Shown here in pieces: positions 18,891 to 38,238 of a DNA stretch of 64,000 nucleotides. Made by a program: the position numbers and the translations under genes. The stretch is from positions 37,717 to 101,716 of the forward strand of contig CALCKW010000006.1 in the NCBI GenBank assembly GCA_937965695.1. Direction: 5' to 3'. Each line of letters opens with the position of its first letter. Position 1 is the first letter of the stretch. Under the pieces are notes generated by a model that saw only the letters and a list, made by a program, of their open reading frames with translations, was not told the DNA's origin and did not search any database. The DNA is from an uncultured Granulosicoccaceae bacterium (GTDB lineage: Bacteria; Pseudomonadota; Gammaproteobacteria; CALCKW01).

Positions 18891-18892
18891 CC

Positions 18893-19405: not shown

Positions 19406-21196
19406 ATGAGTAACTATTTCTCTGAATTTCCCAAGTACCTATGGGAACTATTAAGCCCGGCAAAAACCTGGTTACCAGAACTTCGTAACTGGGAAGTGTT
19501 GAGAGCAGACATCATTGCCGGAGTCACGGTTGCACTAGTATTAGTACCCCAAGTTATGGCTTATGCGCAATTGGCTGGGTTGCCCGCATACACCGGCCTT
19601 TACGCGGCATTTGTTGCTCCAATCATTGGTGCAATTTTTGGCTCTTCCCGCCAGTTGCACAATGGTCCAGTCGCGGTCATATCATTGATGACTGCTTCAG
19701 CTCTTGCCTCCCTCACCCTAGAACCCAGTCAATTGATCGGGTTGGCTGCACTGCTAGCACTGATGGTCGGCATTATTCAGATGGGTCTAGGCCTACTTCG
19801 TCTAGGGTTTTTAGTCGACTTTCTCTCTCACCCGGTTATTAGTGGTTTTACAAATGCAGCAGCGATTGTTATTGGGAGCCTGCAATTGGGTAAATTACTG
19901 GGAATATCACAACCCAGTGATCAACAATTCTTAATTACATTACGCGATACTTTACTCGCAATTCCGACCCAAGCCCATGGACCAACGGTTTTAATGGGCG
20001 TGGGTTCATTGGCGATGATTTTTGCATTCAAGCGCTGGGCACCCAAATACCCAGCTATCGTCATGACGGTCATTATTGCAACGTTGATTTCATGGCTATT
20101 TTCTTACCAAGCACGTGGTGGCGCTGTTGTCGGCGTCGTACCAACTGGCCTCCCAGAAATTTCAGTGCCTACTGGCTGGCATCATATATCCCAATTGTTG
20201 TTACCGGCGTTTACTATTGCGTTATTGAGTTTCGTTGAAGCTTTCTCAATTGCAAAAGCTGTTGCATCAAAAACCCGTCAGCGGATTTCAGCTGATCAAG
20301 AAATGTTCGGTAAGGGCCTCGCCAATATTGCGACAGGATTTACTCAGGGCTACCCGGTATCTGGTTCGTTTTCACGCACGGCAGTTAACTTTGACGCGGG
20401 AGCTCGAACCGGATTCGCGGCGATCATATCCGGTCTGTTAGTGGCCATCACCTTATTATTTCTCACGCCATTACTCTACTTTCTGCCACTCTCGACATTG
20501 GCTGCGGTGATCATGGCTGCGGTATTTGGTCTTATACAATTTGAGCCCTTCAAACACGCTTGGAAAGTCAACCCACATGATGGATTTGTCGCCCTGGTGA
20601 CTTTTTTGGTAACACTGTGGCTGGCGCCTCATCTTGAATATGGGATTTTTGTCGGCGTTGGATTATCTATCGCTTTCTATCTTTATCGCACTATGCAGCC
20701 ACATGTAGCGGAATTAGCTCGTGACCAAGATGATACCTTAAGAGACGCCGCGCTTTTTGGCCTTAAGACAAGTCACACCCTTGCAATGTTTCGCTATGAT
20801 GGCGATCTGTACTTTGCAAATGCTGGGTATCTTGAAAAAGTGTTACTCAATGCAGTGGCTGATAAGCCGCACTTGAGGGTATTGATTCTTGATCTTGAGG
20901 CGGTAGACCAGATAGATGCAACGGGTGAAGAAATGTTAGGCAACTTAGCAGACGGTTTATACCAAGCCAACATTGCTTTTTTCATCTGCCGACCGAAGTT
21001 TAAATTATTGGACGCAATAAAACGCTCTGGTCTGAGCACTAAAATTGGCGAAGACAATATTTTCAGTAAGCGTCGGAATGCTATTCAGACGGCAGTCGAG
21101 CGGTTCCCAGGTGTTGTCGATGTTAGCCACCTAATGAGCTATCAACCTGATAAAGATGCCAATATTGAAAACCCACCGAGTAAGCCGACTAACTAA
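19406..21196 (+). CDS. SulP-family (SLC26) anion transporter with C-terminal STAS domain
   Basis: 596 aa. About 10 to 12 TM helices followed by a STAS-like domain (…LRVLILDLEAVDQIDATGEEML…). Confidence 0.85.
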   Translation: MSNYFSEFPKYLWELLSPAKTWLPELRNWEVLRADIIAGVTVALVLVPQVMAYAQLAGLPAYTGLYAAFVAPIIGAIFGSSRQLHNGPVAVISLMTASALASLTLEPSQLIGLAALLALMVGIIQMGLGLLRLGFLVDFLSHPVISGFTNAAAIVIGSLQLGKLLGISQPSDQQFLITLRDTLLAIPTQAHGPTVLMGVGSLAMIFAFKRWAPKYPAIVMTVIIATLISWLFSYQARGGAVVGVVPTGLPEISVPTGWHHISQLLLPAFTIALLSFVEAFSIAKAVASKTRQRISADQEMFGKGLANIATGFTQGYPVSGSFSRTAVNFDAGARTGFAAIISGLLVAITLLFLTPLLYFLPLSTLAAVIMAAVFGLIQFEPFKHAWKVNPHDGFVALVTFLVTLWLAPHLEYGIFVGVGLSIAFYLYRTMQPHVAELARDQDDTLRDAALFGLKTSHTLAMFRYDGDLYFANAGYLEKVLLNAVADKPHLRVLILDLEAVDQIDATGEEMLGNLADGLYQANIAFFICRPKFKLLDAIKRSGLSTKIGEDNIFSKRRNAIQTAVERFPGVVDVSHLMSYQPDKDANIENPPSKPTN

Positions 21197-21231
21197 GACA
21201 CGCTATCGACAACACTGAAGGATCACAATCA

Positions 21232-22725
21232 ATGGCAAGCTATCAAGACGCCGCCAACTATCAGCATGAAATCAGTTTGCTAGGGAGCACATCTGCACTC
21301 CTAGGATGGGATCAAGAAACACAGATGCCCAGTGGCGCACAAGCCTATCGTGCCGAACAGCTTGGTTATCTGACCAAGCTTCAGCACAGTATGCTAATTG
21401 ATGAAAAACACAGTGAACAGCTACGATCCCTCGCGGAAGACAGTAGCTTGAGTGAGATTGAACAGGTCAATATTAAAGAGTGGCTAAAGACAACACACCG
21501 TGCAAGTGCAATTCCTTCGGAGTTGGCTGTAGAGCTGACAGAGACCAGCAGTCACGCAATGATGGCTTGGCAAGCAGCAAGAAAAGAAAATAATTTTGCT
21601 GAGTTTTCTCCTTGGTTACAAAAAACTGTTTCACTTAAACTTCGTGAGGCAGAAGCCGTCGGCTGGACGGAACACGGTGAGCCGTGGGACGCTCTCGCTG
21701 ATGAATTTGATCCGGGAATGACAGCTGAATCCGTGAGCCGAGTATTCAGCCCTTTGCGCAGTGAGCTCGTGACGTTACTCGATGAACTTCGAGGCGCACC
21801 GGTGCAGCCAGATACAAGTTTTTTAGATCAAACCCTAGCGGTAGAAAATCAAAAACCGTTGGTTCGCGAATTTCTTCAAGCACTGGGCTTTAATTTTGAT
21901 CGTGGTGTTATGGCTATCAGCACGCATCCTTTTTGCAGCGGCTTTCACCCTAACGACGTACGGATGACAACCCGCTACGATGAATCGAATTTCAGCGATG
22001 CTGTCACAAGTGCTATGCACGAGTGCGGACATGCGCTCTACGAACAAGGTCTTCCGTTAGACCAAGCCGGCACCCCCGCGGGTGCTTACAATGGACTTTC
22101 AATCCATGAAAGTCAGAGTCGACTGTGGGAAAACCAAGTGGGTCGATCCAAGGGATTTCTAGAATGGGCGCTGCCACAATATAAATCAGCAGGGCTCGCT
22201 AACACTGAACTAAACAAAGCTTACAGCGCGCTAAATATTGCCCAACCTTCACTGATACGCGTAGAAGCAGACGAGACGACTTACAACCTACACATTATGG
22301 TTCGGTTTGAGTTGGAGCGGCTAATGCTCAACGGGGAATTGGCAGTAAAAGACTTACCGGATGCTTGGAATCAGCAGTATCGAGACTACCTTGGTGTCAC
22401 ACCACCGGACGACGCCTCAGGCTGTCTGCAAGACGTGCACTGGAGTATGGGTGCGATGGGTTATTTCCCAACCTACACACTGGGTAACCTTTATTCTGCT
22501 CAGTTCTACGCCTCGGCGAAAAAATCTATCGGAGATCTGGAAAGTCAGTATGCTGCTGGAGACTTTAAACCACTCCTACAATGGTTGCGAGATAACATAC
22601 ACAGCAAAGGCAGACAGCTAAGCCCCGCGGATTTGTGTAAACAAGTTACCGGCGAAGAATTATCCGCCGATTATCTCTTGGATTACTTGCGCAACAAGCT
22701 TCGACCGGTCTACGGCTTAGCTTAA
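21232..22725 (+). CDS. M32 carboxypeptidase (thermostable carboxypeptidase Taq-like)
   Basis: 497 aa. HEXXH zinc motif (HECGHALYEQG) plus the family-typical IRVEADETTYNLHI and DVHWSMGAMGYFPTYTLG segments. Confidence 0.8.
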   Translation: MASYQDAANYQHEISLLGSTSALLGWDQETQMPSGAQAYRAEQLGYLTKLQHSMLIDEKHSEQLRSLAEDSSLSEIEQVNIKEWLKTTHRASAIPSELAVELTETSSHAMMAWQAARKENNFAEFSPWLQKTVSLKLREAEAVGWTEHGEPWDALADEFDPGMTAESVSRVFSPLRSELVTLLDELRGAPVQPDTSFLDQTLAVENQKPLVREFLQALGFNFDRGVMAISTHPFCSGFHPNDVRMTTRYDESNFSDAVTSAMHECGHALYEQGLPLDQAGTPAGAYNGLSIHESQSRLWENQVGRSKGFLEWALPQYKSAGLANTELNKAYSALNIAQPSLIRVEADETTYNLHIMVRFELERLMLNGELAVKDLPDAWNQQYRDYLGVTPPDDASGCLQDVHWSMGAMGYFPTYTLGNLYSAQFYASAKKSIGDLESQYAAGDFKPLLQWLRDNIHSKGRQLSPADLCKQVTGEELSADYLLDYLRNKLRPVYGLA

Positions 22726-23876
22726 TCTTTAGATTGAGCCGAGGATATCTCAGCCAATATTTCATCGGTGTGCTCCCCCAAACTGGGAGACGCTCGATCT
22801 AACGCCAACCGCGATTCTGAAAAAACCAAAGGTGTGCGTACACCGGGCATACCTTCTGGTTCGATCTGTAACCCGCGTGCTTGCACATGCGGATCTGCAA
22901 AAACTTCTTCCACCGTATTGATTGATCCGCATGGAACACCGACTTCTTCCAAGGCAGATAATAAAGAATGTTTATCCCATGTAGCGATTTTGCTTGCCAG
23001 TAGTGCAACGAGTACATCTCGATGCTGCACTCGCCCAGCATTGCGGATAAATCGCTCATCAGTCGACAGTGCAGAAACACCTAAGACAGCACACAGGCGC
23101 TGATACTGACCGTCATTTGCGCCAGCAACGATGATATGACTGTCCGATGTTGCGAAAACTTGGTATGGAACAATAGTCGGATGTGCATTGCCCATCCGTG
23201 TGGGGTTCAATCCACCGATAATATGGTTTGTGGCTTGATTGGCCATCACACCAACCATACTGTCCAGCAAAGAGAGATCGATTTGCTGGCCGTTCCCACT
23301 GCGCTCTCGTTCAGTGAGCGCTGCTTGAATACCGATGACACCGTAAAGCCCGGTGAAGATATCAGCAAATGCAACGCCCATTTTTTGAGGCTCGCCCTCG
23401 GCAGCACCGGTCACCGACATGGCGCCACCCATACCTTGCACCAAAAAATCATAGCCGGGCTTAGCCGCATACGGTCCGGTCTGCCCAAAGCCTGTCACCG
23501 AGCAATAAATCAATCGGGGGTTTACCTCGGCCAAACTGGCGTAGTCAAGTCCGTACTTTTTCAACCCACCGAGTTTAAAATTCTCGATCAAGACATCCGC
23601 ATTGCGAATCAAATCCAGCACGACCCGCTGGCCTTCTTCACTGCGAAAATCGGCAACGATAGAACGCTTGCCACGGTTGCAACAATGAAAATAAGCGGCA
23701 GACTCCTCACCCTTGTGTTTAACAAAAGGTGGGCCCCATTGGCGTGTATCGTCACCTTGCGGACTCTCGACTTTGATGACATCCGCGCCGAGATCAGCCA
23801 GCGTTTGGCCTATCCAAGGACCCGCTAAAATACGCGCCAATTCAATAACACGCAAACCCTGCAATGGCGATGTCAT
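22722..23876 (-). CDS. Family-III CoA-transferase (CaiB/BaiF); glutarate/glutaconate-type CoA transferase by context (GcdG-like)
   Basis: N-terminal LQGLRVIELARILAGPWIGQTLADLGADVIKVE is the CaiB/BaiF signature. Lies immediately downstream of gcdH, as in Pseudomonas. Confidence 0.75.
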   Translation of the reverse strand: MTSPLQGLRVIELARILAGPWIGQTLADLGADVIKVESPQGDDTRQWGPPFVKHKGEESAAYFHCCNRGKRSIVADFRSEEGQRVVLDLIRNADVLIENFKLGGLKKYGLDYASLAEVNPRLIYCSVTGFGQTGPYAAKPGYDFLVQGMGGAMSVTGAAEGEPQKMGVAFADIFTGLYGVIGIQAALTERERSGNGQQIDLSLLDSMVGVMANQATNHIIGGLNPTRMGNAHPTIVPYQVFATSDSHIIVAGANDGQYQRLCAVLGVSALSTDERFIRNAGRVQHRDVLVALLASKIATWDKHSLLSALEEVGVPCGSINTVEEVFADPHVQARGLQIEPEGMPGVRTPLVFSESRLALDRASPSLGEHTDEILAEISSAQSKD

Positions 23877-25093
23877 CAGAAGAAAGCTTGAAGGCTAGTC
23901 TGCGCCCTGCCAAGAATCAACGCATGCACATCGTGCGCGCCTTCATAAGTGTTAACCGTTTCAAGGTTAACCATATGGCGCATCACCTGGTACTCCTCAG
24001 AGATGCCGTTGCCGCCGTGCATATCACGCGCCATGCGAGCGATATCCAACGCTTTGCCACAGTTATTGCGTTTGATCAGCGAAATCATCTCTGGTGCAGC
24101 TTCGGCGCCATCCATCAACCGCCCGACTTGCAGACAGGCTTGCAGTCCGAGTGTTAGCTCAGTTTGCATATCAGCAAGTTTTTTCTGGAACAACTGAGTT
24201 TGCGCGAGAGGACGGTTGAACTGGTGTCGATCCAAACCGTACTGACGTGCCGCGTGCCAGCAAAATTCCCCAGAACCAATAACACCCCAAGCAATGCCAT
24301 AACGGGCACGATTGAGACAACCAAAAGGCCCACGCAGCCCCTCTACATGAGGCAACAAATGCTCTTCACTGACTTCAACCTTGTCCAGAACAATTTCACC
24401 CGTCACAGAAGCACGCAAACTAAGCTTCCCGTCGATTTTTGGTGCAGACAGGCCAGCCATTCCTTTTTCTAAAACAAAGCCCTTAATTTTTCCGCCGTGC
24501 GCTTCCGACTTGGCCCAAACGACAAAGACGTCGGCAATCGGGCTGTTGCTGATCCACATTTTGCTGCCAATCAACCGGTAGCCACCATCGATTTTTTCAG
24601 CACGCGTTTTCATGCTACCAGGATCGGAACCCGCATCTGGCTCAGTCAAACCAAAGCAACCAATCCACTCACCGCTCGCCAACTTGGGCAAGTACTTCAT
24701 CCGTTGTTCTTCGGAGCCGTAGGCGTAAATGGGGTACATGACCAATGAGCTCTGCACCGACATCATAGATCGGTAGCCAGAGTCTACGCGTTCAACTTCA
24801 CGCGCCACTAATCCGTAGCTGACATAACTGGCGCCTACACCACCGTACTGCTCCGGCAGTGTCGTTCCCAGCAAACCCATCTCACCCATTTCTGCAAAGA
24901 TCGCAGGGTCTGTCTTCTCTTGACTAAAAGCTTCTATGACACGGGGCTGCAAACGATCTTGAGCATAACTGCGCGCCGAATCTCGTATCATGCGCTCATC
25001 AGACGTAAGCTGACCGTCAAAATTCAGAGGGTCCTCCCAGTTAAAACTGCCAAGGCTAGCTGCATCTTTGTCTCTGAGATCCGGTTTTGTCAT
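23876..25093 (-). CDS. gcdH: Glutaryl-CoA dehydrogenase
   Basis: Acyl-CoA dehydrogenase fold with a GcdH-like N-terminus ([25 protein letters not shown]). I trimmed the start to MTKPD at 25093, which has AGGAA upstream. The ORF track extends to 25204. Confidence 0.8.
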
Positions 25094-25229
25094 GTCTGTT
25101 CCTAGGTCTTGGACAGCACTGAAGGCTGACGTAGTATGATTAAAACTCAATTTCAGTTGAAACTTTAACCCACTTTTTAGCCACCAGCTGGGATAATAGC
25201 TCAACTGCCTATGACCTAATGGAATAGCT

Positions 25230-26168
25230 ATGCAATTCCCAACACGCTATTTACCGTCCACTCGAGCTTTGCTAGCCTTTGAAGCGGTTGCACGGCTTAG
25301 CAGTTTTTCATTGGCCGCAGCCGAACTCAACCTCAGTCAGAGTGCCGTTAGTAAGCAGCTCAAACATTTGGAACAGCAATTGGGCGTCATGCTGCTCACC
25401 CGTGACCACCACCACGTTGGCCTAACAGCAGCTGGTGCACGCTATGCTCCTGAAATCAGAGAATCCTTAGCGCAAATCGCGCACGCTTCTCTGGCCGTCA
25501 GTACAAACCCTCATGGTGGTACCCTTGGACTAGCTATATTGCCCACTTTCGGCACTCGCTGGTTGGCGCCACGTTTACCCTTATTTTTGAGCGAATATCC
25601 TGGCATTACCGTCAACCTAGTCACACACTTAAAGCCCTTTGATTTCCGACTCGAAAGACTAGACGCAGCAATCCTTGTGGGCGACGGGCATTGGCCAGGC
25701 ACCCAATCGATGTTTCTGATGAATGAGACGGTTATTCCCGCCTGTGCACCCGCTCTAAAAAAGCAGCATAAATTTGAAAACGTCGACCAGCTTCACAACA
25801 CGAGACTACTGCACATGGCGACTAGAGCGCAGGCATGGACACGTTGGATGCGAGCGTATGACGGTGCGACGGAAGAGCGTCAAGGCATGGTCTTTGATCA
25901 ATTCGCCACCGTTGCGCAAGCGGCAATCTCAGGCTTGGGTGTCGCATTGTTGCCTCCTTTTTTAATTCAACGAGAGCTTGACGAAGGATCTTTAGTTGCG
26001 GCCCTTCCCTTGCCGCTTAAAAGTATAGAGTCCTATTATTTGGTTTGGCCAGAGTACAGGCAAGAGTTCCCTCCACTTGTAGCGTTTAAAGATTGGCTGC
26101 AGCAATCCGTTCAGCAATTTGAAAACCGATCAGCCTCAGAAACAACTCCGCAGAGTAAAGAATTGTGA
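25230..26168 (+). CDS. LysR-family transcriptional regulator, GcdR-like (divergent from gcdH)
   Basis: 312 aa. N-terminal HTH ([35 protein letters not shown]) with a LysR substrate-binding domain. Confidence 0.7.
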
Positions 26169-27583
26169 CAACACTCCCCACTCAGCTACAACATGATTTG
26201 CAAGCTCTCGCAGGTGAAGGTGGATATCGCGATGCCACTGAAAGAGATGTCACAGAAATGCGGGGCCGTTACCGCGGCGGCAGTACATTGGTATTACGCC
26301 CGAAAACCACAGAGATTGCTGCCGCGATAGTGAGCCGTTGCGCTGAAGCTCAACTGCCAATCATCCCTATCGGTGGGGCTACTGGGCTAGTGGCAGGGCA
26401 TATCGCGAGTGAGAATCAAACTGGCGTGCTTTTATCCACCGAACGTCTGGTCAATATCCGCGAGATAAATTCAACAGATCGTCAGTTGGTCGCGGAAGCG
26501 GGTGTGATCCTCGCGAACGTACAGGCAGCCGCCACAGCAAAGGATTTACTGTTTCCACTCAGCCTAGCTGCTGAGGGCAGTTGTACTATTGGTGGCAACC
26601 TATCTACTAACGCCGGCGGTGTACAAGTACTCCGCTACGGTAATACACGCGATCTCGTGCTCGGTGTGGAAGCCATAATGCCAAACGGTGAAATACTCAA
26701 CGGCTTGTCACCTTTGCGAAAGAATAACACCGGCTATGACATTAAAAACTTACTCATAGGCGCTGAGGGTACACTGGGCCTAATAACAGCGGCATCTCTT
26801 AAGCTGTACCCGTCGATAAAAGACAGCTGCACAGCATTGTGCCCCGTCGCTTCGCCAGCAGCCGCACTTGCACTTCTTAGCCAACTACAGCATGAACTAG
26901 GAGAGTTCATCAGCGCTTTCGAGCTAATTTCTGGCCAAGGTTTGCATTTTTTGCGAGAGCACTTTCCACAACTGCCACAAGCTATTTCACCTCCGCCTGA
27001 ATGGTCAGTAGTCTTGGAGCTAGGAAGTAGTGCAGAAAACGAATTAAAAAAATTAGCAGAAAGCGCACTTACGAAGGCAATTCAAAAGGACCTGATTCTC
27101 GATGCGGTCATCAGCCAAAGTGAAACACAGCGCCAACAAATCTGGAGTCTGCGTGAACATATTCCGCTGGCGAATAAAAAAGTTGGCGCAATCGTCAGTT
27201 TCGATATCAGTCTTCCGCTTAGCAAACTGGCACTCTTCATAAAAACAGCTGTGCCCAAAGTACAAGATTTTGATGGCAATCTTCGTATTAACTGCTTCGG
27301 TCATGTGGGCGATGGCAATCTGCATTTTAACGTATTTCCACCGATCGATAAGTTAGCGTGTAACTACCGTTCGCAACAAACGGAAATCAGATCGGCTGTT
27401 TATGATCTAGTACAGAAGATGGGGGGATCTTTCAGCGCAGAGCACGGAGTTGGCAGAGATAAAGTTTCAGAGCTTTTACAGTATGGAGACCCAACAAAGC
27501 TAGAGGTCATGGCTTCAATTAAAAAAGCATTGGATCCGAATGGAATTTTTAATCCCGGTGCAGTGATTGATCCGCGAAAATAA
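26165..27583 (+). CDS. FAD-linked oxidase (GlcD / D-lactate / D-2-hydroxyacid dehydrogenase family)
   Basis: 472 aa. PCMH-type FAD-binding N-terminal domain (LVLRPKTTEIAAAIVSRCAEAQLPIIPIGGATGLVAGHIA) with a C-terminal FAD-oxidase domain. GTG start overlaps the LysR stop (GTGA). Confidence 0.75.
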   Translation: MTTLPTQLQHDLQALAGEGGYRDATERDVTEMRGRYRGGSTLVLRPKTTEIAAAIVSRCAEAQLPIIPIGGATGLVAGHIASENQTGVLLSTERLVNIREINSTDRQLVAEAGVILANVQAAATAKDLLFPLSLAAEGSCTIGGNLSTNAGGVQVLRYGNTRDLVLGVEAIMPNGEILNGLSPLRKNNTGYDIKNLLIGAEGTLGLITAASLKLYPSIKDSCTALCPVASPAAALALLSQLQHELGEFISAFELISGQGLHFLREHFPQLPQAISPPPEWSVVLELGSSAENELKKLAESALTKAIQKDLILDAVISQSETQRQQIWSLREHIPLANKKVGAIVSFDISLPLSKLALFIKTAVPKVQDFDGNLRINCFGHVGDGNLHFNVFPPIDKLACNYRSQQTEIRSAVYDLVQKMGGSFSAEHGVGRDKVSELLQYGDPTKLEVMASIKKALDPNGIFNPGAVIDPRK

Positions 27584-27589
27584 AAAAAA

Positions 27590-28609
27590 TTACTCCGGAC
27601 TTGCCTTTTCTTCACCCGAAGAAATACTCATGCCCGCAGCGCGTCTGCGCTCATCACGAGGCGGCAAACCATAGACGTCGCGATAGCATTTGGAAAAATG
27701 AGGCGCTGAAATAAAACCGCAGGCCAAAGCAATATCAACAACGGGCATACTGGTTTGGAGAAGCAATTGCCTCGCCCGCTCAAGTCTAAGCTCTAAATAA
27801 TAACGAGTGGGGACACAGCCTAGGTATTTTTTAAAAAGCCTTTCCAATTGCCGGCGTGATAAACCAATATGATGAGCCAGTTCGCTAAGCGTCATTGGTT
27901 CTTCGATATTGGCCTCCATCAAAGAGACGGCTTCTGTCAGTCGGGGTTGCGAATTGCCAATACGATGTTTCAACGGCATGCGTTGACGGTCTTGATTTTC
28001 ACGCACCCGATCACAGATGAGCAAGTCAGAAACGCTGTTTGCAATTGTAGCGCCCTGCTGCTCGCGCACCAGGTGCAACATCATATCAAGGGGTGCTACC
28101 CCACCTGCACATGTGTGGCGGTCTCGGTCAATTTCGTATATGGATGAGGACAAAACCAGCGCGGGAAATTCTTCTCTCACACTAGCCATGTTTTCCCAAT
28201 GGATAGTGCATCTGTAGCCGTTCAATAACCCTGCCCGCGCTAGCAGATAAGAGCCCGTGCAAATTCCTCCAAGCACTAATTTTCGTTCAGCCATTTTGCG
28301 CAGCCAACCGAGGGTAAAATTATTCGCTGATCGTTGAACCCCTTCGCCGCCACAAACATAAAGGACATCCAGTGCTGGAACAGTCGCGGTACTGCAGTCG
28401 ACAGCGAGCTCAACACCCGCGCTAGAACTGACTGCTGTGCCATCAGACGAAATCAGGTGCCACTCGTAAAGTGTCGAAGCTGCGGTGCGGTTGGCGGCAC
28501 GCAAGGTATCGAGAGCCACCGACAATGACATGAACGTGAAATCCGGCACCAGAAAGAAGCCTACACGTAAGATCGGCTGCGCCGAAGGGTCATTCACATT
28601 CAAAGCCAT
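27590..28609 (-). CDS. AraC-family regulator with N-terminal DJ-1/PfpI (class-I glutamine amidotransferase-like) domain, GlxA/GbdR/CdhR type
   Basis: RVGFFLVPDF…ICTGSYLLARAGLLNGYRCTIHWEN is the DJ-1/PfpI-like part. The C-terminal AraC HTH is LSELAHHIGLSRRQLERLFKKYLG. Start set at MALNV. Confidence 0.75.
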   Translation of the reverse strand: MALNVNDPSAQPILRVGFFLVPDFTFMSLSVALDTLRAANRTAASTLYEWHLISSDGTAVSSSAGVELAVDCSTATVPALDVLYVCGGEGVQRSANNFTLGWLRKMAERKLVLGGICTGSYLLARAGLLNGYRCTIHWENMASVREEFPALVLSSSIYEIDRDRHTCAGGVAPLDMMLHLVREQQGATIANSVSDLLICDRVRENQDRQRMPLKHRIGNSQPRLTEAVSLMEANIEEPMTLSELAHHIGLSRRQLERLFKKYLGCVPTRYYLELRLERARQLLLQTSMPVVDIALACGFISAPHFSKCYRDVYGLPPRDERRRAAGMSISSGEEKASPE

Positions 28610-28780
28610 TCTCCAGAGCACCTGATGGTTATTAACAGATACCCAACCTTATTTAGCCAACACTTTTAAGTAAGAGGAGCCGAAAAAAGCCCTTCCCATT
28701 GTGACCTTACTGCTAGCGGGATTAGGCAGCATTGTTAGGCTTTTGGCAAGCATTGGTTTAATTATTTCACTCGCCGTCTG

Positions 28781-30337
28781 TCAATAATTTGCATCCGGAA
28801 AACTTGCCTTACGTTCAGCGATAAAAGCTAACAAAGCTTCGTCAACGGCAGGGTCTAATTCTGGGGCTTGGTAGTCAGCTAACATTTGTTTCCAACGGGT
28901 ATTAGCTCGTTGCATCGCATCTTGCGAACCCTCAGATTGCCATTGCTCAAAGCTGTTGTTGTCGGCAACCTTGGAAATGTAAAATGCGTCTTGGAAATTC
29001 TCTTGGGTATGCGCGCATCCAAGGTAGTGGTTCCCAGGCCCAACCTCTTGGTGCGCTGACATTGCCAACCCCTTTTCTGAGAGATCCACCCCGCCCAGAA
29101 ATTTTCCTATCATGCCAGCCTGATCTGCATCCATCACGAATTTTTCGTAGCCCATGACCAATCCGCCTTCCAGCCAACCCGCCGTGTGCAACATGAAATT
29201 CACGCCGGAAAGCATCGCAGTTTGCAACGTATTGGCAGCTTCGTACCCTGCTTGAGCATCAGCAATTTTAGAGGCATTTAGCCCCCCACCGGAGCGGAAT
29301 GGTACACCTAGGCGACGAGCAAGCGAGGCGCAAATGTACATCACTTGGCTTGGCTCAGGCACACCAAAAGTTGGGGCGCCTGACTGCATCGATACAGCAC
29401 TGGCAAAAGTACCAAAGACGACGGGTGAGCCTGCACGAACCAACTGGCAAAAAGCCATGCCAGCCAGCGCTTCAGCCAGAATTTGCGATGAAGTTCCAGC
29501 GACTGTCACCGGAGACATCGCGCCCGCTAATATAAACGGAGAAACAACGCATGCTTGGTTGTTCTCGGCGTAGACCTTAGCAGCACCCAACATGGTGTCG
29601 TCGAAAACCATTGGGGAGTTTGCATTGATTAGATTGATGACGACCGTGCGCTCGACACCCGTCTCGGGGTCCAAATAATTGTCGCCAAACAGTATTTTGG
29701 CCATATCAACCGTGTCTTGCGCCCGCTCGGCCGCTGTGACAGAGCCCATGAAGCACTTATCCGAGTACTTCATGTGGCTATAGACCATATCAAAATGACG
29801 CTTATTGACCGGCAGATCTACAGGCTCACAAACAGTGCCACCAGAGTGATGAATTGACGGGGACAAATAGGCCAATTTGACGAAGTTTTGGAAGTCTTCA
29901 ATAGTGCCATAGCGGCGCCCCCCGTCCATGTCGTAGACAAACGGAGGGCCATAGGCCGGCACTAAAACTACGGCATCACCGCCAATCTGTACGTTTTTGG
30001 CAGGATTTCGCGCATGCTGCGTGAATACACTCGGTGCATTGTCTTGGATGATTTTACGGCACATGCCGCGTGGAAAGCGTACACGCTCACCTTGCACGTC
30101 TGCACCAGCAGCTTTAAACAGCTCTAGTGCCAACGGGTAATCGCGGAATTCAATGCCTATCTCTTCCAGCAGCGTATCAGCGGTCTCTTCTATGGTCTTT
30201 AGGCCAGCTTCATTCAATACCTCATAACAAGGTACTTTTCTTGTGATGTAGGGAGCGGCAGGTGCAACATTGGCCTGACGAGCGCGTCGGTCGGCGCGGC
30301 CACCTGCGCGGCGTCGTTTTGGTGCTGGATCTGTCAT
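28781..30337 (-). CDS. MttB-superfamily methyltransferase (non-pyrrolysine trimethylamine/quaternary-amine methyltransferase homolog)
   Basis: 518 aa. After an Arg-rich N-terminal extension, the segment EVLNEAGLKTIEETADTLLEEIGIEFRD matches the characteristic MttB-family N-terminus of the TIM-barrel methyltransferases. No in-frame stop codon that would indicate pyrrolysine. Confidence 0.7.
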   Translation of the reverse strand: MTDPAPKRRRAGGRADRRARQANVAPAAPYITRKVPCYEVLNEAGLKTIEETADTLLEEIGIEFRDYPLALELFKAAGADVQGERVRFPRGMCRKIIQDNAPSVFTQHARNPAKNVQIGGDAVVLVPAYGPPFVYDMDGGRRYGTIEDFQNFVKLAYLSPSIHHSGGTVCEPVDLPVNKRHFDMVYSHMKYSDKCFMGSVTAAERAQDTVDMAKILFGDNYLDPETGVERTVVINLINANSPMVFDDTMLGAAKVYAENNQACVVSPFILAGAMSPVTVAGTSSQILAEALAGMAFCQLVRAGSPVVFGTFASAVSMQSGAPTFGVPEPSQVMYICASLARRLGVPFRSGGGLNASKIADAQAGYEAANTLQTAMLSGVNFMLHTAGWLEGGLVMGYEKFVMDADQAGMIGKFLGGVDLSEKGLAMSAHQEVGPGNHYLGCAHTQENFQDAFYISKVADNNSFEQWQSEGSQDAMQRANTRWKQMLADYQAPELDPAVDEALLAFIAERKASFPDANY

Positions 30338-30571
30338 GGGTGCCTCTGCCTTCTATTTATTATTTATCACTTTCGTCTTTCGCGGGGTATCTACCCACTG
30401 CCCAAATTCGAGAACGGACTGAAAAAATTAAGCGTAGACTATTCTTTCAAACAGCTTAGCGTTGCGCCGATCATCGTCTTCGGATTACCCTTGGCAGTAT
30501 GCGCAGCCACGACAGCAAACTGTTAGCTCTGAGCGACTGCCCTCTACCGCTATCCGACTTGAGCCCATTCG

Positions 30572-31519
30572 ATGCGATTACCTCACGGTTTTGACTTGCG
30601 TGCACTAGAAGTTTTCTGTTGCGTAGCCCGCGAACGTAATATGACGGCTGCGGCCAAACAACTTGAGCTTTCCCAGTCGTCTGTTTCACAGACCATTTCG
30701 CAGTTAGAGTGCACACTGGGTGTGGCCTTGTTGGATCGCAGTGTGCGGCCACCTGCCTTAACTCACGCAGGGCAAAGTTTAAAAAAGAGCGCTGAAGCTT
30801 TGATAGAACACTCAATTGCGGCCTTGCGCGAGACACGTGAAAGCGCGGGTTTGGGGTTGCCTACATTGCGTATCGCCATGATAGATAGTTTTGCGGCTGT
30901 CGTTGGCCCAGCGTTAGTAAGCACTCTTCAAGATCAAGCAAAGCACTGGCGTGTCTGGTCTGGATTATCCCCCGGTCATCTGGATGCGCTATACGATCAC
31001 CAGGTTGATTTTATTGTCGGCGAACATACAGGCGATAGCCGACTGCAGCAGCATTCGATAATACGAGAACCTTTTCTGCTAGTCTTACCGTTAAACGACA
31101 AAGGCCCCCGCGACAACATTGCTCAAATCGCCCGACGCCTACCACTCGTTCGCTACTCGCTGCGCTCGCGGATCGGTCAGCAAGTAGAGAGTTACATAGA
31201 AGCAGCAGGTATCAATGCACCAATGGCCCTGGAATTTGATACTGCACCTGCGCAGCTCGCAATGATTGGTGAGGGCCTGGGTTGGGGTGTCACAACCCCG
31301 CTTTGTGCTCTACATGCAAGAGGCGAACTAGCAAAGTTACAACTGCTCCCTCTGCCTGGACCAGCGCTCAGTCGCGAAATATCGCTGCTCAGCCACTGCG
31401 GGCAGCTAGACGCTTTAGCGGAGCGAACAGCTCAGGTCGCTCGTGATGTTATTCACGAGGAGCTTCTGCCAGAGTTGCATACACGCTTTAAAGATCTAAA
31501 TTTAAACTTCTCAACCTAA
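30572..31519 (+). CDS. LysR-family transcriptional regulator
   Basis: 315 aa. HTH (LRALEVFCCVARERNMTAAAKQLELSQSSVSQTISQLE) with a LysR substrate domain. Divergent from the MttB-family gene. Confidence 0.75.
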   Translation: MRLPHGFDLRALEVFCCVARERNMTAAAKQLELSQSSVSQTISQLECTLGVALLDRSVRPPALTHAGQSLKKSAEALIEHSIAALRETRESAGLGLPTLRIAMIDSFAAVVGPALVSTLQDQAKHWRVWSGLSPGHLDALYDHQVDFIVGEHTGDSRLQQHSIIREPFLLVLPLNDKGPRDNIAQIARRLPLVRYSLRSRIGQQVESYIEAAGINAPMALEFDTAPAQLAMIGEGLGWGVTTPLCALHARGELAKLQLLPLPGPALSREISLLSHCGQLDALAERTAQVARDVIHEELLPELHTRFKDLNLNFST

Positions 31520-32357: not shown

Positions 32358-33677
32358 CTAAATATCTTCGCCGACCCCAGCAAAACGCTGTCGCAACGAC
32401 CAGGCGGCACCGAGGTCTAAAAGAGGCCGCGGCGGCAGCCATTTAGCTTCAGCAAAGCCAGAGGCATCTTTAATGAGTTGGTCATCGCCTCCTAACATCA
32501 GTCTGGCCAGTGCTGTTCCAAGTGCAGTGCCGCGACTTAAGCCCGACCCATTATAGCCTGCCGCTGCAAAAACATTTGGCGCGTATTGACCAAAAAAGCT
32601 GGTCATATTGCGGCTAACGCCTTCGCAACCACTCCAACTATGTTCTATCGGTACTGACTCCAATTGCGGAAATCGTTTTAGCATACGTTCTCGGTGTTTT
32701 GGCACTTGTTGCTGCAACTGTTTTGGCGTTAGCAATTGACCGCCATTGTAAGACACACAGTTGCGTAACATTAACCGTCTATCTTTACTCAGACGAACAG
32801 TTGCTCCACCGCCGTGTAAGCCCAACACTCCCCAGCTTGGGCACGTCCCCATACTTGCCATTTCTTCGTCAGTGAGTGGTCGTGTAAAACTGCCCGACAA
32901 CGTTGTCGCAACGATTCGATTGCGCAAAAAGCCAAGCCCAGGCATCTCGTAATTACAAGCCAAGACTAATTGCTGTGTTTGCACCGTGTGGCCAGTAGAC
33001 AGCATGAGATCTATTCCTAGAGCACCTTGCTGAATCTGCTCAACGGGCGTGTTCTCAAAAAACCGGACGTTTTCCGGTAATCGATCCACCAAACGGTAAA
33101 GCAGGTCTGCAGGCTGTACGAGCGCCCCAAGTGGCACGTGCACACCACAATCGTAATGAGATGTGCCCAGCTCTCGCTCTATGTCACTTCTATTAAGTGC
33201 CCTGTACGGCAACCGAAAATTGCGCAGGCTGTTTATAAAGTGCTCGGATTCACGCGCTGATGGTGTGTCCGCCGCGAGATAATGATAACCACTTTCCTGC
33301 CACCAATCGCTATTGGATTCCGGTGAAGCTGCCGCACGCAACAGCGCAAGGCCTTCGTGATTTAGACGATTAATTCGTTTGCATTCGGCAACACGCTCTT
33401 CTGTGACAGGCCCACCAAATTGTGAAACACCAACTGCAAAGCCAGCGTTTCGTCCAGACGCACCCGCAGACAAGGTTCTGGCATCGAGCAACAGCACTTC
33501 ATCATCTGGACACATCGCGGCCAATTCGCGCGCTGCAGACAAACCTGTAAAACCAGCGCCAACCACAACAAATTTCACCGATTTATTCTCTCGCAATGCA
33601 GGTCGCGAACGTCGAGGTTGTGTTAGGTAGCGCCAGCCCGTGAGGTCATCGGAAAAAGTTTTAGTGGTGTGAGCCAT
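32358..33677 (-). CDS. FAD-dependent oxidoreductase (DAO family; PuuB/OrdL-like)
   Basis: 439 aa. Rossmann dinucleotide motif KFVVVGAGFTGLSAARELA near the N-terminus. Confidence 0.7.
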   Translation of the reverse strand: MAHTTKTFSDDLTGWRYLTQPRRSRPALRENKSVKFVVVGAGFTGLSAARELAAMCPDDEVLLLDARTLSAGASGRNAGFAVGVSQFGGPVTEERVAECKRINRLNHEGLALLRAAASPESNSDWWQESGYHYLAADTPSARESEHFINSLRNFRLPYRALNRSDIERELGTSHYDCGVHVPLGALVQPADLLYRLVDRLPENVRFFENTPVEQIQQGALGIDLMLSTGHTVQTQQLVLACNYEMPGLGFLRNRIVATTLSGSFTRPLTDEEMASMGTCPSWGVLGLHGGGATVRLSKDRRLMLRNCVSYNGGQLLTPKQLQQQVPKHRERMLKRFPQLESVPIEHSWSGCEGVSRNMTSFFGQYAPNVFAAAGYNGSGLSRGTALGTALARLMLGGDDQLIKDASGFAEAKWLPPRPLLDLGAAWSLRQRFAGVGEDI

Positions 33678-33807: not shown

Positions 33808-35004
33808 TCAATAACCGTAGGTGGCAGGCCTACTCGAGCCCTGCAGGTTGCCCTCGCTAGCAATCACTAAAAAACCACCAGCAGCGGTTAGCGATGCGAC
33901 GACGACCAATGCAATTTTTATCTTGCTGTAGGGTCTCTCGCCAAGAACTTTGGCTGTGCGGCCGTTTATAACAAATCGATAATGCTTGCCGCTGAATCTG
34001 AAAGCGGCTGTCCACAGCGGCAGCAATATATGCTTGAAGGTAGTACCGCTGTGGCGCGTATTCACACTGTGAACTCGCTGATAATCGCCACCGATATCCG
34101 CCCGTACATCCGCTTTAATCTTGGCACTCATCACTCGCCTAGCCCGATCAAAACCCTCATCGAGTGGCACTTGATAAACTTCACTGCGCAAGCCACTAAG
34201 GTAGGATTCATCGTAGGGGACCAGCGCTTGTAAATCCCATGGATGCAAGCGATCCGTGATTTGTCGAGGCAGCGTATCGGACGCGCCAATAAGCACGTCG
34301 TCAAAGTGCCGGCCAACTCTGCCGGTCACACGATGCCAACGCACCTTGGGCACTTGTTGTCGGCGCCGAACCCGCCGTCCGTTCTGCACCACTGTCACCC
34401 ATTCACTGACAAAGTAAGTTTCACCACGCTCACCACGATACTGGCTGCTCGTATCGCTGTCATAAGTCCAATAGGGCAAATACACGCCGTTGAGCGATTG
34501 ATCGGCCCGCGCATAACGCTTGAGCTTACTGGGAGCAAACCACAAACTTTTCAACCATTTGCGGTAGGCTTCGCTGGCTTGTTTTTCAGTCACAGCAAAG
34601 GGCAACAACGACTCTGCCCTAAACCTCACCGATTCACCGTCAGTCAAGACTACAGGTGCACTGCAAAAGGGGCATTCTCCCGAGCGTTGTTCCGCGTCGT
34701 AACTGAAATGGGCACCGCAGCTATCACAGCCAATATGCGGTACCTCATTGGTCTGATCAGGCGCGCGCTCTAAAGCAGCCAATGCCTCTCGCAAACTGTG
34801 TTCGCTAATGGTTTGCGTTGATTTTTCAATGGCCTGCTGGTGGTTGCAATAGTCGCAGACCAGCGACTCTTGCCCCACGGCATAACGCAACACAGCACCG
34901 CACTGCTCGCACGGAAAACGTTGCTCTTGCCGTTCATTAATTACGTTTTTTTTGTTCGCCAGATTTTTCTTGGCCGTATCAAAAATACCCAAGGCTTTAG
35001 CCAC
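33808..35004 (-). CDS. Multi-zinc-ribbon membrane-anchored protein (B. subtilis YdjG-like), last gene of the TelA/SPFH stress operon
   Basis: 398 aa. Two N-terminal CxxC…CxxC ribbons (CEQCGAVLRY…CDYCNHQ and CDSCGAHFSY…CPFCSAP). Single C-terminal TM helix (IALVVVASLTAAGGFLVIA). Confidence 0.5.
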   Translation of the reverse strand: MAKALGIFDTAKKNLANKKNVINERQEQRFPCEQCGAVLRYAVGQESLVCDYCNHQQAIEKSTQTISEHSLREALAALERAPDQTNEVPHIGCDSCGAHFSYDAEQRSGECPFCSAPVVLTDGESVRFRAESLLPFAVTEKQASEAYRKWLKSLWFAPSKLKRYARADQSLNGVYLPYWTYDSDTSSQYRGERGETYFVSEWVTVVQNGRRVRRRQQVPKVRWHRVTGRVGRHFDDVLIGASDTLPRQITDRLHPWDLQALVPYDESYLSGLRSEVYQVPLDEGFDRARRVMSAKIKADVRADIGGDYQRVHSVNTRHSGTTFKHILLPLWTAAFRFSGKHYRFVINGRTAKVLGERPYSKIKIALVVVASLTAAGGFLVIASEGNLQGSSRPATYGY

Positions 35005-35069
35005 CCGACAAGTTTGCAGTGTTCAATTTCAGTCCAGAGTGCTTACCTTCAAATGATGAAACACCCCGA

Positions 35070-36170
35070 TCAAGCAGACGGTATCGGTGGTGGCTGTTGG
35101 TCATCAAACAAATCGGCTACCACAGGGGCCTCGTCCGCTCGCATCCATTCGCCCAGAGACTTGTACCACACAAGTGTGTCGGCGGAGAGTTCACCCGCCT
35201 CAACTTGTTGGGTGATTTGAGGCAAAGTAAACGGCCCCGTCGCTGTCCCGTCACGAGCAACATGTACACGCACTACTGGCAACAAGGGCGGAGGAACATC
35301 ACCCTGGCCAAGCACACCAGGGCGCATCATTTGAGTCGCAGCGGCCATACCAACCGCCATGCCCATACCATCACTTGCACCGCCGCTCGGGTTTTCCGCA
35401 GCGGACTGCATAGCGGAGCCAGTTTGCACTTTGATGTACCTATCAAGGTCACCAATAATTCCCATGCTGGTGCGTTTATCCAGTGCCGCTTCTACATCAG
35501 AAGGTAACGAGATATTCTCAACCAAAAGCTTGGTGATTTCGAGCCCGTACTCAGAAAACTCAGGCGCTATTTGAGCGGTGATGAAATCACTGAGCTTTTC
35601 GTAGTTAGCAGCCAAGTCGAGCACGGGAATCTGCGCCTCCGCAACAACGGCGGCAAAACGTGCTGCGATCAGATTACGCAGCTGCTCGCTGATTTCATCA
35701 ACAGAAAACAAACCGTCAGTGCCGACAATTTCACGCAAAAACCGTTCGCCATTATTGATACGCATCACGTAACTGCCAAAGGCGCGCAAGCGCACCATGG
35801 CAAACTCCGAATCACGAATCATCAGAGGATTTCGCGTACCCCATTTTAAATCAGTAAAACGCCTTGTGCTGCAAAAATAAACCTCTGCTTTGAACGGGCT
35901 GTTAAACGCGTGAGGCCACGCTTGTAGAGACGACAACAGAGGTAAATTATTTGTTTCCAGTTCGTACATTCCAGGCTCTAGCACATCGGCTACCTGCCCT
36001 TCGTTGACAAATACAGCCACTTGCCCTTCGCGTACAGTCAGTTTTGCACCGTATTTTATCGAGTTTCCCTGGCGCGGAAATCTATACACTAGCGTGTCGG
36101 AGCTATCATCGGTCCATTCAATGACGTCGACAAATTCGCCAAAGAGCCGATCAAAAAGTCCCATGATCAA
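35070..36170 (-). CDS. SPFH-domain protein with C-terminal GYF-like DUF4339 domain (YdjI/virion-core-protein-like band-7 family)
   Basis: 366 aa. The N-terminal 250 aa match the YdjI-type SPFH fold (…KLTVREGQVAVFVNEGQ…). C-terminus is LPQITQQVEAGELSADTLVWYKSLGEWMRADEAP, the DUF4339 pattern. 4-bp overlap with the upstream TelA-like gene. Confidence 0.65.
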   Translation of the reverse strand: MIMGLFDRLFGEFVDVIEWTDDSSDTLVYRFPRQGNSIKYGAKLTVREGQVAVFVNEGQVADVLEPGMYELETNNLPLLSSLQAWPHAFNSPFKAEVYFCSTRRFTDLKWGTRNPLMIRDSEFAMVRLRAFGSYVMRINNGERFLREIVGTDGLFSVDEISEQLRNLIAARFAAVVAEAQIPVLDLAANYEKLSDFITAQIAPEFSEYGLEITKLLVENISLPSDVEAALDKRTSMGIIGDLDRYIKVQTGSAMQSAAENPSGGASDGMGMAVGMAAATQMMRPGVLGQGDVPPPLLPVVRVHVARDGTATGPFTLPQITQQVEAGELSADTLVWYKSLGEWMRADEAPVVADLFDDQQPPPIPSA

Positions 36171-37342
36171 GCGCTCGTTGAGGGCGCTGCGGCCGCTTCA
36201 GTGCCGTGCGCGCTAGCCGCTTTCAAGGACTCACGCAATTCTCCTTCTAAACGATGCAACTCTGTCTCTGCTTCGGCGCGGCGTCGTTTACCCTCGTCAG
36301 CGATGACAAGACTCTCTTCGATACTGGCCACTAAATTTGCGTGCGCTTTTTTAACAGATTCCATGTCAAATACACCGCGTTCCATCTCTTCACGCACCTG
36401 ACGGTTAGCCGTGCGCAGGTTCTCAGAATTTTTTTCCAACAACTCATTGGTTAAATCGGTCGCGGCTTTAACATCGGTGGCCACTTTCTGAGAGCGATAA
36501 ATACTAACCGCCTGTGCCAACTGGTTACGCCACAAGGGCACCGTATTGACAAGCGTTGTATTAATTTTTGTGATGAGGCCTTTGTCGTTCTCTTGAACCA
36601 TCCGAATACTGGGCAATGCCTGCATCGCAACTTGGCGCGTCAAACGTAAATCATGCACTCGTCGCTCCAGGTCATCACGACGTGCGCGCATATCGCGTAA
36701 GGCCTGAGCTTTGAGCATGTCTTCACCTTCGGCCTCCGCAACAAGCGCAGGAATCAGTGTCTTATCACACTCTTCAAGCTTGGATTCACCCGCGGCGATG
36801 TATAACTCGAGATTATTGAAGTAATCCAGATTGGCGTCATAGAGTTTATCTAAGGAGACGATATCGCGTAGCAGCGTTGTCTTGTGGGACTCAAGCTTAT
36901 CAGTCACTGCGTCAATCTGTGGGCGCACTTCCTCGTATTGTTGAATAAACTGTGCAACAGGCGCAGCCCTTCCCGTAATCCAATTGATAAGACGCGCCAA
37001 AAGACCTGGTTTTTCATTTGGATCAAGGCCTGCCACGTCAAAACCACGAAGTACGCCAACCATTTCGTTGAGGGAATCTCCCGCTGTGCCTAGTTCTTTG
37101 TTTTTTACACCTTCGAGCATACTGTCGGATATTGTTGTCAGCTGCTCTTGAGCTTTGCTGCCAAAAAACAAAATATCATTGCTGTCGTTCATGTTGAGCT
37201 GCGTCTGAAGCTCTTCAATTTTAACCCGCTGTTCTTCGCTGGCAGTCGCTAAGGTGACGGGTTCATCGGCCAATACCATCAAGGTGTGACCGACAATTGA
37301 CTGTTCACTTTGCAGTGTAGTTTCGCTCATTGTTTTCTCCAT
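36167..37342 (-). CDS. TelA-like toxic-anion-resistance protein (TelA/KlaA/YaaN family)
   Basis: 391 aa. Helical protein of TelA length, with conserved family-like segments (…GFDVAGLDPNEKPGLLARL…LYIAAGESKLEE…). Confidence 0.7.
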   Translation of the reverse strand: MEKTMSETTLQSEQSIVGHTLMVLADEPVTLATASEEQRVKIEELQTQLNMNDSNDILFFGSKAQEQLTTISDSMLEGVKNKELGTAGDSLNEMVGVLRGFDVAGLDPNEKPGLLARLINWITGRAAPVAQFIQQYEEVRPQIDAVTDKLESHKTTLLRDIVSLDKLYDANLDYFNNLELYIAAGESKLEECDKTLIPALVAEAEGEDMLKAQALRDMRARRDDLERRVHDLRLTRQVAMQALPSIRMVQENDKGLITKINTTLVNTVPLWRNQLAQAVSIYRSQKVATDVKAATDLTNELLEKNSENLRTANRQVREEMERGVFDMESVKKAHANLVASIEESLVIADEGKRRRAEAETELHRLEGELRESLKAASAHGTEAAAAPSTSA

Positions 37343-37392
37343 TGACTTTTGTCACAGAGCGCATCTCTGTGACTTGGGCATGTCGCTTGATT

Positions 37393-38238
37393 TTAAGCCA
37401 CGCCTTCTCTTTCAAGCTGCATTTGCAGCACTTCAATTTTCACGTCCAGGTCGTCGTGGTTATGTTCCATCAATTTAATCCGCTGCTCTTCAACAACAGT
37501 CTCAATGGTATCGAGCACACGGCGGAAGTTATCTTCGAGCGCCGCGTCATCACCGAGACGGTGCGTGCGAGCGTATCCAGCGACCACTTGCTGGGCACCG
37601 TCTAAATACACCTTTAAAAACTTTCGCGCACGCCGTAAATCAGAAGGCTGATCTTCGATGATATCGAGCAATTCGCGCACGGCAGCGACAATGCGACGCA
37701 ATCGCTGACGTAGTTCGGGTTGTTTAATCTGACGAGCGGATGTTTCAATCGCATCAATACGAGACTCAGCCTCTTCAAGCACATCCAACACTTCTTCTGC
37801 CGTCACACCTACTGCAGATATATCAGGAGAATTTCGTGCCGGATCAAAGCCGTAGCGTAAGTAGTACCCCAAAAAAGTGAAGCCACCATAAATGACCGAG
37901 GTAATGAGCCCATTGCGAGTACCCGCCCAGGCGGCGAGTGTCACGCCAGCACCCAAAACTAGCGCGGCCATTGCCTTGTAAGGCACTGTACTACTGCGTC
38001 TGACTAGTTTGCGACGCAGTGCTTGAGATTCGATCAGCATGCCACGCCGAGAAAGATTGGCGGCTAAAATACAGATGGCGAACGCCACGCCTAACAGAAG
38101 CGCCAACATCCAATGACCGCCGGATAATCGCAATAAAGCAGCCAGCAACAGAGGTAGAGGTAAAAAGTAAAGCAAAAGACCACGGCTATTGGGGTGACCA
38201 CCACGCGCTTTACCGCCATAACGCTTGGCGAGGCTCAT
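37393..38238 (-). CDS. XpaC-like (5-bromo-4-chloroindolyl phosphate hydrolysis protein family) membrane protein
   Basis: 281 aa. N-terminal hydrophobic TM helices followed by a C-terminal charged helical domain. Positioned directly upstream of the TelA-like gene, as xpaC/yaaN are in Bacillus. Confidence 0.5.
   Translation of the reverse strand: MSLAKRYGGKARGGHPNSRGLLLYFLPLPLLLAALLRLSGGHWMLALLLGVAFAICILAANLSRRGMLIESQALRRKLVRRSSTVPYKAMAALVLGAGVTLAAWAGTRNGLITSVIYGGFTFLGYYLRYGFDPARNSPDISAVGVTAEEVLDVLEEAESRIDAIETSARQIKQPELRQRLRRIVAAVRELLDIIEDQPSDLRRARKFLKVYLDGAQQVVAGYARTHRLGDDAALEDNFRRVLDTIETVVEEQRIKLMEHNHDDLDVKIEVLQMQLEREGVA

Follow-up and report, generated by a model that had tools for sequence, protein, structure and literature searches.

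We examined a methyltransferase of the MttB superfamily whose locus offers it no corrinoid carrier. The gene in question (mtgB-like, referred to hereafter as mttB; positions 28781–30337, minus strand, 518 amino acids) lies between two regulator genes on a 64,000-nucleotide stretch of contig CALCKW010000006.1, from an uncultured Granulosicoccaceae bacterium; this whole stretch is termed the window throughout. A preliminary description, made from the DNA letters without database searches, had presented the enzyme as an orphan whose substrate and methyl acceptor (corrinoid or tetrahydrofolate, THF) were both open. Our analysis, which draws on the Pfam profile PF06253, matches to solved structures and the gene contexts of orthologs, indicates that the gene is most likely an ordinary representative of the recently described B12-dependent glycine-betaine demethylases of marine bacteria. 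The full explanation that we favor, and hold with good confidence, is that it encodes an MtgB of the aerobic type, demethylating glycine betaine and serving a carrier that is encoded elsewhere.

A non-pyrrolysine MtgB-like protein without partner genes in the window

The PF06253 (MTTB) profile aligns over its whole length, positions 1–500 of 500, with the 518-residue protein (745 bits; gathering cutoff 25), and the open reading frame (ORF) contains no internal stop codon, which upholds the placement among the non-pyrrolysine members of the superfamily given in the preliminary description, including the profile check of PF06253 membership that it had proposed. Methanosarcina barkeri MttB (PDB 7XCL) belongs to the same Pfam family and matches the window protein at 110 bits only; in this alignment, Leu353 of the window protein pairs with the residue “X” that denotes pyrrolysine in the M. 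barkeri enzyme, and this leucine is invariant among close homologs. A trimethylamine methyltransferase of the pyrrolysine type was considered and rejected, given the score with TIGR02369 (246 bits against a cutoff of 525), the leucine at the pyrrolysine position and the lack of an amber codon.

Two solved structures lie closer. The nearest by sequence is PDB 4YYC (745.7 bits, aligned over residues 11–516), which shares the motif GWLEGG and part of the basic N-terminus with the window protein; the entry is named “putative trimethylamine methyltransferase”, a name that assigns no function, and a literature search found no paper on the structure. We take 4YYC to derive from Sinorhizobium meliloti. 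The second is the glycine betaine methyltransferase MtgB of Desulfitobacterium hafniense (DSY3156; PDB 2QNE/9YCE; DhMtgB), matched at 452 bits and 46% identity over 470 residues, which shares the TIM-barrel family, a leucine at the pyrrolysine position and conserved residues Y97, R312, and H348. In contrast to the window gene, the gene for DhMtgB, which belongs to an anaerobe, has that of its own corrinoid protein beside it; the enzyme also lacks the Arg-rich N-terminal tail of ~30 residues that the window protein bears.

The preliminary description had reported no corrinoid-protein partner in the window, and this holds under systematic search. Pfam scans of all window ORFs of at least 150 amino acids found no B12-binding, Pterin_bind, RACo, DUF1638, or URO-D domain, and tblastn of the six translated frames with partner proteins from related loci (22 MtgC, 22 MtgD, 35 RACo, 20 DUF1638, and 19 MetF queries) gave nothing below E = 1e-3 except a spurious 35-bit RACo fragment within an acyl-CoA dehydrogenase gene. 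The sole folate gene in the window is folD (53846–54718). No cobalamin riboswitch was found by Rfam, whose single match in the window is a tRNA-Met (63883–63959), and a scan for terminators and promoters around mttB returned counts no higher than those in shuffled sequence.

Ortholog neighborhoods and the proposed route of the methyl group

A scan of one genome per species retrieved 80 loci at 67–93% identity to the window protein; 74 proteobacterial loci were scored (73 ortholog loci and the window itself), and three further relatives (L082, L084, and L086) were fetched by exact look-up. ORFs were called in every locus and clustered, and recurrent clusters were annotated with Pfam. The best matches are metagenome-assembled genomes of Granulosicoccaceae (L002 at 93%, L003 at 89%), in which the synteny is that of the window.

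Genes of the corrinoid system (MtgC, MtgD, RACo, or DUF1638) lie within 10 kb in 41 of the 73 ortholog loci. A protein with B12-binding and B12-binding_2 domains (MtgC) is encoded in 22 loci, as the gene directly after mttB in 13 of these, and a RACo-type activase with a 2Fe-2S domain in 35. The other recurrent neighbors are DUF1638 and PF13769 proteins, a protein with the MTHFR C-terminal domain, MTHFR, and a Pterin_bind protein (Pfam matches of the cluster representatives: B12-binding with B12-binding_2, DUF1638, PF13769, DUF5981, MTHFR, Pterin_bind, and RACo). Also recurring beside the orthologs are dimethylglycine dehydrogenase (DMGDH)-like proteins (DAO with GcvT), SoxA/B-like proteins, BCCT transporters, EtfAB and a homocysteine S-methyltransferase (HcyMT).

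Orthologs at 67–76% identity occur in clusters of the order mtgC-DUF1638-PF13769-MTHFR_C-metF-mtgD-RACo. In the sister genus Granulosicoccus (locus L013), the mttB-AraC gene pair is placed ~9 kb from such a cluster, read in the order RACo-mtgD-metF-MTHFR_C-PF13769-DUF1638-mtgC (on the minus strand of that locus, RACo at 14829–16964, MtgD at 17006–17995, and MtgC at 20530–21276), with genes for a homocysteine methyltransferase (4868–5932, minus strand) and a DMGDH upstream. The S. meliloti ortholog (67%) is divergent to genes for a cobalamin-binding protein, DUF1638, a “virulence factor”, MTHFR_C, MTHFR, a methyltetrahydrofolate:cobalamin methyltransferase, and an ASKHA protein, with bmt and a glycine betaine ABC transporter in the vicinity; the ortholog lies in the colocalized cluster mentioned by Mausz et al (2025, PMC12478193). 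Accompanying the ortholog of Azoarcus KH32C (71.5%) are folD, ETF-QO, a choline-binding protein, betA, and betB.

The S. meliloti record, an entry of PLSDB (CP090106.1, locus L087), itself holds three MttB-family places, the paralogs being at most ~55% identical to the window protein. It is titled “plasmid pSymB” at 3.72 Mb with 3239 annotated features, and may be the chromosome or a mislabeled replicon. Its length is greater than the size we take pSymB to have.

The published system that most resembles this arrangement is MtgBCD(E) of Ruegeria pomeroyi DSS-3, a glycine betaine demethylase and split methionine synthase (Mausz et al, 2025, PMC12478193). There, the synthesis of methionine and growth on glycine betaine both depend on mtgC as well as on mtgD; RamA and DUF1638 are co-induced; and glycine betaine, choline, and carnitine induce two PF06253 proteins, SPO2108 (MtgB1) and SPO2134 (MtgB2). 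The genes of the system are dispersed on the chromosome, and the up to seven PF06253 paralogs per genome are thought to share one MtgC (PMC12478193). As with the window gene, R. pomeroyi is thus a case of non-pyrrolysine PF06253 proteins in an aerobic marine proteobacterium, with mtgB away from mtgC, mtgD, and ramA; we liken the window gene to MtgB1 and MtgB2 by family and description. The components of the R. pomeroyi system (MtgC, DUF1638, RamA/RACo, MtgD, and MetF2) are those that cluster with orthologs of the window gene, so that the orthogroup displays the genomic association of the aerobic MtgBCD system, both across the 41 loci and in the S. meliloti cluster.

Since an unlinked mtgB is the published norm in the aerobic system (PMC12478193), the missing adjacent corrinoid gene is no anomaly, and the embedding of orthologs in MtgC/MtgD clusters indicates that the acceptor for the orthogroup is a corrinoid first and then THF, through MtgD. 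Neither the orphan status nor the open acceptor of the preliminary description is supported. We propose that MtgB would strip a single N-methyl group from glycine betaine, releasing dimethylglycine, and load it onto the Co(I) of MtgC, a separate corrinoid protein; the pterin-binding methyltransferase MtgD would hand the methyl group on to tetrahydrofolate, MetF2 and FolD could oxidize it further, and a RACo/RamA-type activase with DUF1638 would re-reduce inactive Co(II). In this Granulosicoccaceae lineage only mttB and a GbdR-like regulator are present at the locus, and the carrier and the other clients are most likely encoded elsewhere in the genome, acting in trans as in R. pomeroyi.

A true orphan would present the same empty window, and partner genes are likewise missing within 10 kb of mttB in the three closest lineages (L002, L003, and L086) and in L082 and L084. 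Were the carrier system lost altogether, the enzyme could methylate free cobalamin or THF, take another role, or be nearing loss; DhMtgB does methylate free cob(I)alamin in vitro (PMC13080624). We consider this very improbable. The ORF is intact, at 89–93% identity to its nearest relatives, with the catalytic-pocket residues all invariant; the regulator and putative operator described below are kept, as is an Arg-rich tail common to other MtgC clients; and mtgB is unlinked as a normal state in R. pomeroyi. MtgC is moreover widespread in Granulosicoccus, including G. antarcticus; the 120 matches of that search are all at least 87% identical and give no lineage resolution.

The AraC regulator, the LysR neighbor, and a putative operator

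Directly downstream of mttB, on the same strand after a 171-nt spacer, lies a gene for a GbdR-like regulator with a DJ-1_PfpI domain followed by an HTH_18/AraC domain (27590–28609, minus strand, 339 amino acids; the ORF spans 27590–28621, and the likely ATG at 28609 is the one called in locus L001). This architecture places the protein in the GATase1-AraC regulator (GATR) subfamily, as a possible ortholog of GbdR. On the other side of mttB is a divergent gene for a LysR-family regulator with HTH_1 and LysR_substrate domains (30572–31519, plus strand). All three ORFs and both regulator types agree, by Pfam and NCBIfam, with what the preliminary description had given; its picture of mttB standing between two regulators holds for their positions and types, but the two are not equivalent, as the AraC gene recurs with mttB and the LysR gene is found only in the closest relatives.

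Among the 74 scored loci, 15 (the window and 14 genome loci) have the GbdR-like gene directly after mttB in the same orientation, a pairing that spans several orders and includes Granulosicoccaceae, Motiliproteus, Amphritea, and others; the gene also holds the +1 position, same strand, in L082, L084, and L086. The LysR cluster is seen only in the window, L001–L003, and L086. Upstream of mttB, the window and its 89–93% relatives carry LysR-DUF218-DAO, the 79% relative L082 carries TetR, and in the 80% relative L084 TelA abuts mttB, with aconitase genes downstream in both of the latter. This variation of the flanks around a constant pair argues that the conserved unit is mttB with the AraC gene, and that the LysR gene is incidental and lineage-specific; the LysR neighbor is probably not part of the system. 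In the lineage of the window, the mttB-AraC unit sits away from the corrinoid cluster, in the manner of a mobile two-gene module.

The converse arrangement, in which the divergent LysR runs a unit made up of mttB, DUF218, and the DAO-family oxidoreductase, the AraC gene being the incidental one, could draw on the divergent layout over a common 234-bp intergenic region and on Motiliproteus L016, which likewise has the DAO-family gene cluster at a distance of four genes from mttB. We give it next to no credence: the association of mttB with LysR, DUF218, and DAO is confined to the closest relatives, whereas the AraC gene is kept in the 79–80% relatives with TetR or TelA, and the conserved cis-element is of the GATR type.

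That element, a putative operator of the GbdR/CdhR/SouR type, is a direct repeat, AGTCGG-N15-AGTCGC, in the mttB–LysR intergenic region (30533–30559, minus strand), 13 nt upstream of the LysR ATG and ~200 nt upstream of that of mttB. CdhR of Pseudomonas aeruginosa recognizes direct GGTCGC half-sites with a 15-bp spacer, very similar to the sites of GbdR, SouR, and ArgR (PMC5806209). The three P. aeruginosa regulators GbdR, CdhR, and SouR, which govern quaternary-amine catabolism, share the domain architecture of the window AraC protein, and have a GTCG(C/G) direct-repeat operator with a 15-bp spacer upstream of the target; the window sequence shows the same features of GGTCGC-like half-sites, direct orientation, spacing, and upstream placement. 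In Granulosicoccus, the region upstream of mttB contains GGTCGC-N15-(C/A)GTCGC.

Of the 74 loci, 31 have the reduced pattern GTCG-N17-GTCG in a zone of 440 bp around the start of mttB, 27 of them in the orientation of mttB. An empirical background of 0.167 sites per kb predicts 7% of loci in any orientation and 3.6% in that of mttB, giving binomial p-values of 7e-17 and 2e-20, respectively, which are optimistic because the loci are phylogenetically related. The repeat occurs, too, in loci whose mttB is the first gene of the mtgC operon and has no AraC gene beside it. Its enrichment upstream of the orthologs indicates that the orthogroup is likely a member of a GATR regulon, and in the window the adjacent regulator may activate mttB from this repeat in response to glycine betaine or dimethylglycine. 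Such control would differ from that in Pseudomonas, where GbdR governs the oxygenase route (gbcAB) and not a corrinoid methyltransferase, and the pairing of mttB with a GbdR-like regulator and a GATR box is absent from the published description of R. pomeroyi.

Elsewhere in the window the same pattern occurs five more times (3353–3377, 4131–4155, 21095–21119, 21186–21210, and 55678–55702), inside or at the ends of coding regions; these are probably not operators. The six matches in total compare with 1.1 expected from shuffles, and are in line with the empirical background, so that weight can be given only to the enrichment of the pattern at its position upstream of mttB.

Further features lie around this locus. 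A glutarate/lysine-catabolism block (22722–27583) directly adjoins the AraC gene. It is made up of a succinate-glutarate CoA-transferase-like gene (565 bits; cutoff 750), a glutaryl-CoA-dehydrogenase-like ACAD, a GcvA/GcdR-like LysR, and a GlcD-like FAD-linked oxidase, which may be a 2-hydroxyglutarate dehydrogenase. The block seems to have no connection with mttB, as L082 and L084 are without it. The DAO-family FAD oxidoreductase (32358–33677, minus strand, 439 amino acids) has weak matches to aminophosphonate and pipecolate oxidases, and the position of its cluster close to mttB in Motiliproteus makes a link to amine catabolism possible. Beyond it, 33808–38238 (minus strand) encodes PF10112 (Halogen_Hydrol), TelA, Band_7_1/GYF_2, and a zinc-ribbon-like protein of ~390 amino acids without a Pfam family; this block is syntenic upstream of mttB in the 79–92% relatives L082, L084, and L086, and marks the ancestral insertion neighborhood of the mttB-AraC module. 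More distant still are a polysaccharide/capsule biosynthesis cluster (8541–17718) whose GC content of 0.44–0.48 is below that of the rest of the window, with genes for an epimerase/dehydratase, a Wzc-type tyrosine kinase, a sugar transferase, WecG and GT2 glycosyltransferases, and a Wzy_C ligase-like protein, and an interval of ~1.7 kb (17719–19405) between the Wzy-like gene and a SulP transporter gene that contains neither an ORF of at least 150 amino acids nor an Rfam match.

Substrate and the Arg-rich tail

DhMtgB binds glycine betaine through a cation–π pair (Y97 and F356) and through R312 and H348, which hold the carboxylate (Picking et al, 2026, PMC13080624). Residues Y97, R312, and H348 correspond to Y129, R348, and H384 of the window protein, and are invariant in all 74 orthologs. 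F356 gives way to an invariant Gly392 and its neighbor Y355 to an invariant Gly391, and the clade has an invariant tryptophan of its own, Trp388, four residues before Gly392, within the motif GWLEGG. Characterized MttB members that act on other amines, among them acidic quaternary amines, keep the arginine (and less strictly the histidine) but not the aromatic pair (PMC13080624), which means that the three conserved residues cannot tell one substrate from another. With glycine in place of F356 and the added tryptophan, the binding pocket differs from that of DhMtgB, and the identity of the substrate rests on gene context. The preliminary description had left the substrate open; the context of the orthologs (DMGDH, Sox, betAB, BCCT, and the GbdR-like regulator) points to glycine betaine, which we regard as the probable substrate.

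Several observations weigh against the reading of this gene as a glycine betaine demethylase with partners in trans. The fourth glycine betaine-binding residue of DhMtgB, F356, is replaced by Gly392 throughout the clade. The R. pomeroyi knockouts concern mtgC and mtgD only, MtgB1 and MtgB2 having been inferred from proteomics (PMC12478193), and no proteobacterial MtgB has been assayed biochemically. On the regulatory side, the AraC protein scores 453 bits with the GbdR model NF052371, its best NCBIfam match, just under the equivalog cutoff of 480, and the distance from operator to mttB start in the window exceeds that in relatives. The lack of a corrinoid-system partner in the Pfam and tblastn searches of the 64 kb belongs with these points.

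The same type of enzyme, again with partners in trans, could act on another methylated amine (proline betaine, carnitine, gamma-butyrobetaine, choline, or a derivative), an alternative we judge rather unlikely. It would accommodate the replacement of F356 by glycine, the clade-specific Trp388 and the indifference of the three conserved pocket residues to substrate (PMC13080624); GATR paralogs do sense different amines (carnitine for CdhR, sarcosine for SouR), and a genome may carry up to seven paralogs of the methyltransferase. It sits less well with the surroundings of the orthologs, which are rich in DMGDH, SoxAB, betAB, and BCCT genes and so speak of dimethylglycine and sarcosine consumption and of glycine betaine synthesis, with the S. 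meliloti member of the orthogroup in an MtgBCDE cluster near bmt and a glycine betaine transporter, and with GbdR as the best match of the regulator.

The window protein begins with an Arg-rich N-terminus (MTDPAPKRRRAGGRADRRARQ). Codons 1–28 (30254–30337, minus strand; MTDPAPKRRRAGGRADRRARQANVAPAA) form a tail that is predicted to be flexible (AlphaFold2 pLDDT below 50 at residues 1–23; mean pLDDT 74.5, on a shallow alignment). The preliminary description had called this Arg-rich extension unusual. The Arg-rich N-terminus is real, but not unusual: RRRxGGRxAKRAAR-like tails with a net charge of +4 to +9 are carried by 74 of 74 orthologs, and the PF06253 model begins at residue 10 of the window protein.

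In the related loci, poly-Arg tails are found at the opposite terminus of the other clients of the carrier (C-terminal …GRGRRPSRRRRKS and similar; MtgD 22/22, RACo 29/35, HcyMT/MtgE 6/8) and in none of 22 MtgC proteins. MtgC has instead a strongly acidic, conserved N-terminal segment (…DDELVEQMHDDLYDGLKEEI…). Over ~45 residues, the net charge of this segment is −14 to −18 in most loci (−10 to −11 in three); that of the whole protein is −14 to −30. This pattern of basic tails on MtgB, MtgD, RACo, and MtgE and an acidic MtgC leads us to suggest, tentatively, that Arg-rich tails on every carrier client might constitute a docking code, tethering the clients electrostatically to MtgC. The acidity of MtgC and the basicity of client tails showed no significant co-variation across loci (Spearman rho −0.10 to −0.24, p ≥ 0.28). 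A literature search for a connection between tails of this kind and the split methionine synthase found none; the term “arginine-rich” does not occur in the two relevant papers returned, PMC5764234 and PMC12478193. If the idea is correct, clients encoded in trans and unlinked to the carrier gene, this MtgB among them, could compete through such tethering for one shared carrier, and the combination of basic tails and acidic carrier may explain the assembly of the split system.

The apparent orphan status of mttB thus fits the model put forward in 2025, in which several substrate-specific methyltransferases, encoded at dispersed sites in aerobic marine bacteria, depend on one cobalamin carrier, MtgC, and the locus would extend this pathway to Granulosicoccaceae, common alga-associated marine Gammaproteobacteria. 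The grouping of an mtgB-type gene with a GbdR-like regulator and its putative operator would connect the cobalamin route with the regulatory logic that is known for the oxygenase route in Pseudomonas, and the operator may serve as a cis-element marker by which further members of the regulon can be found.

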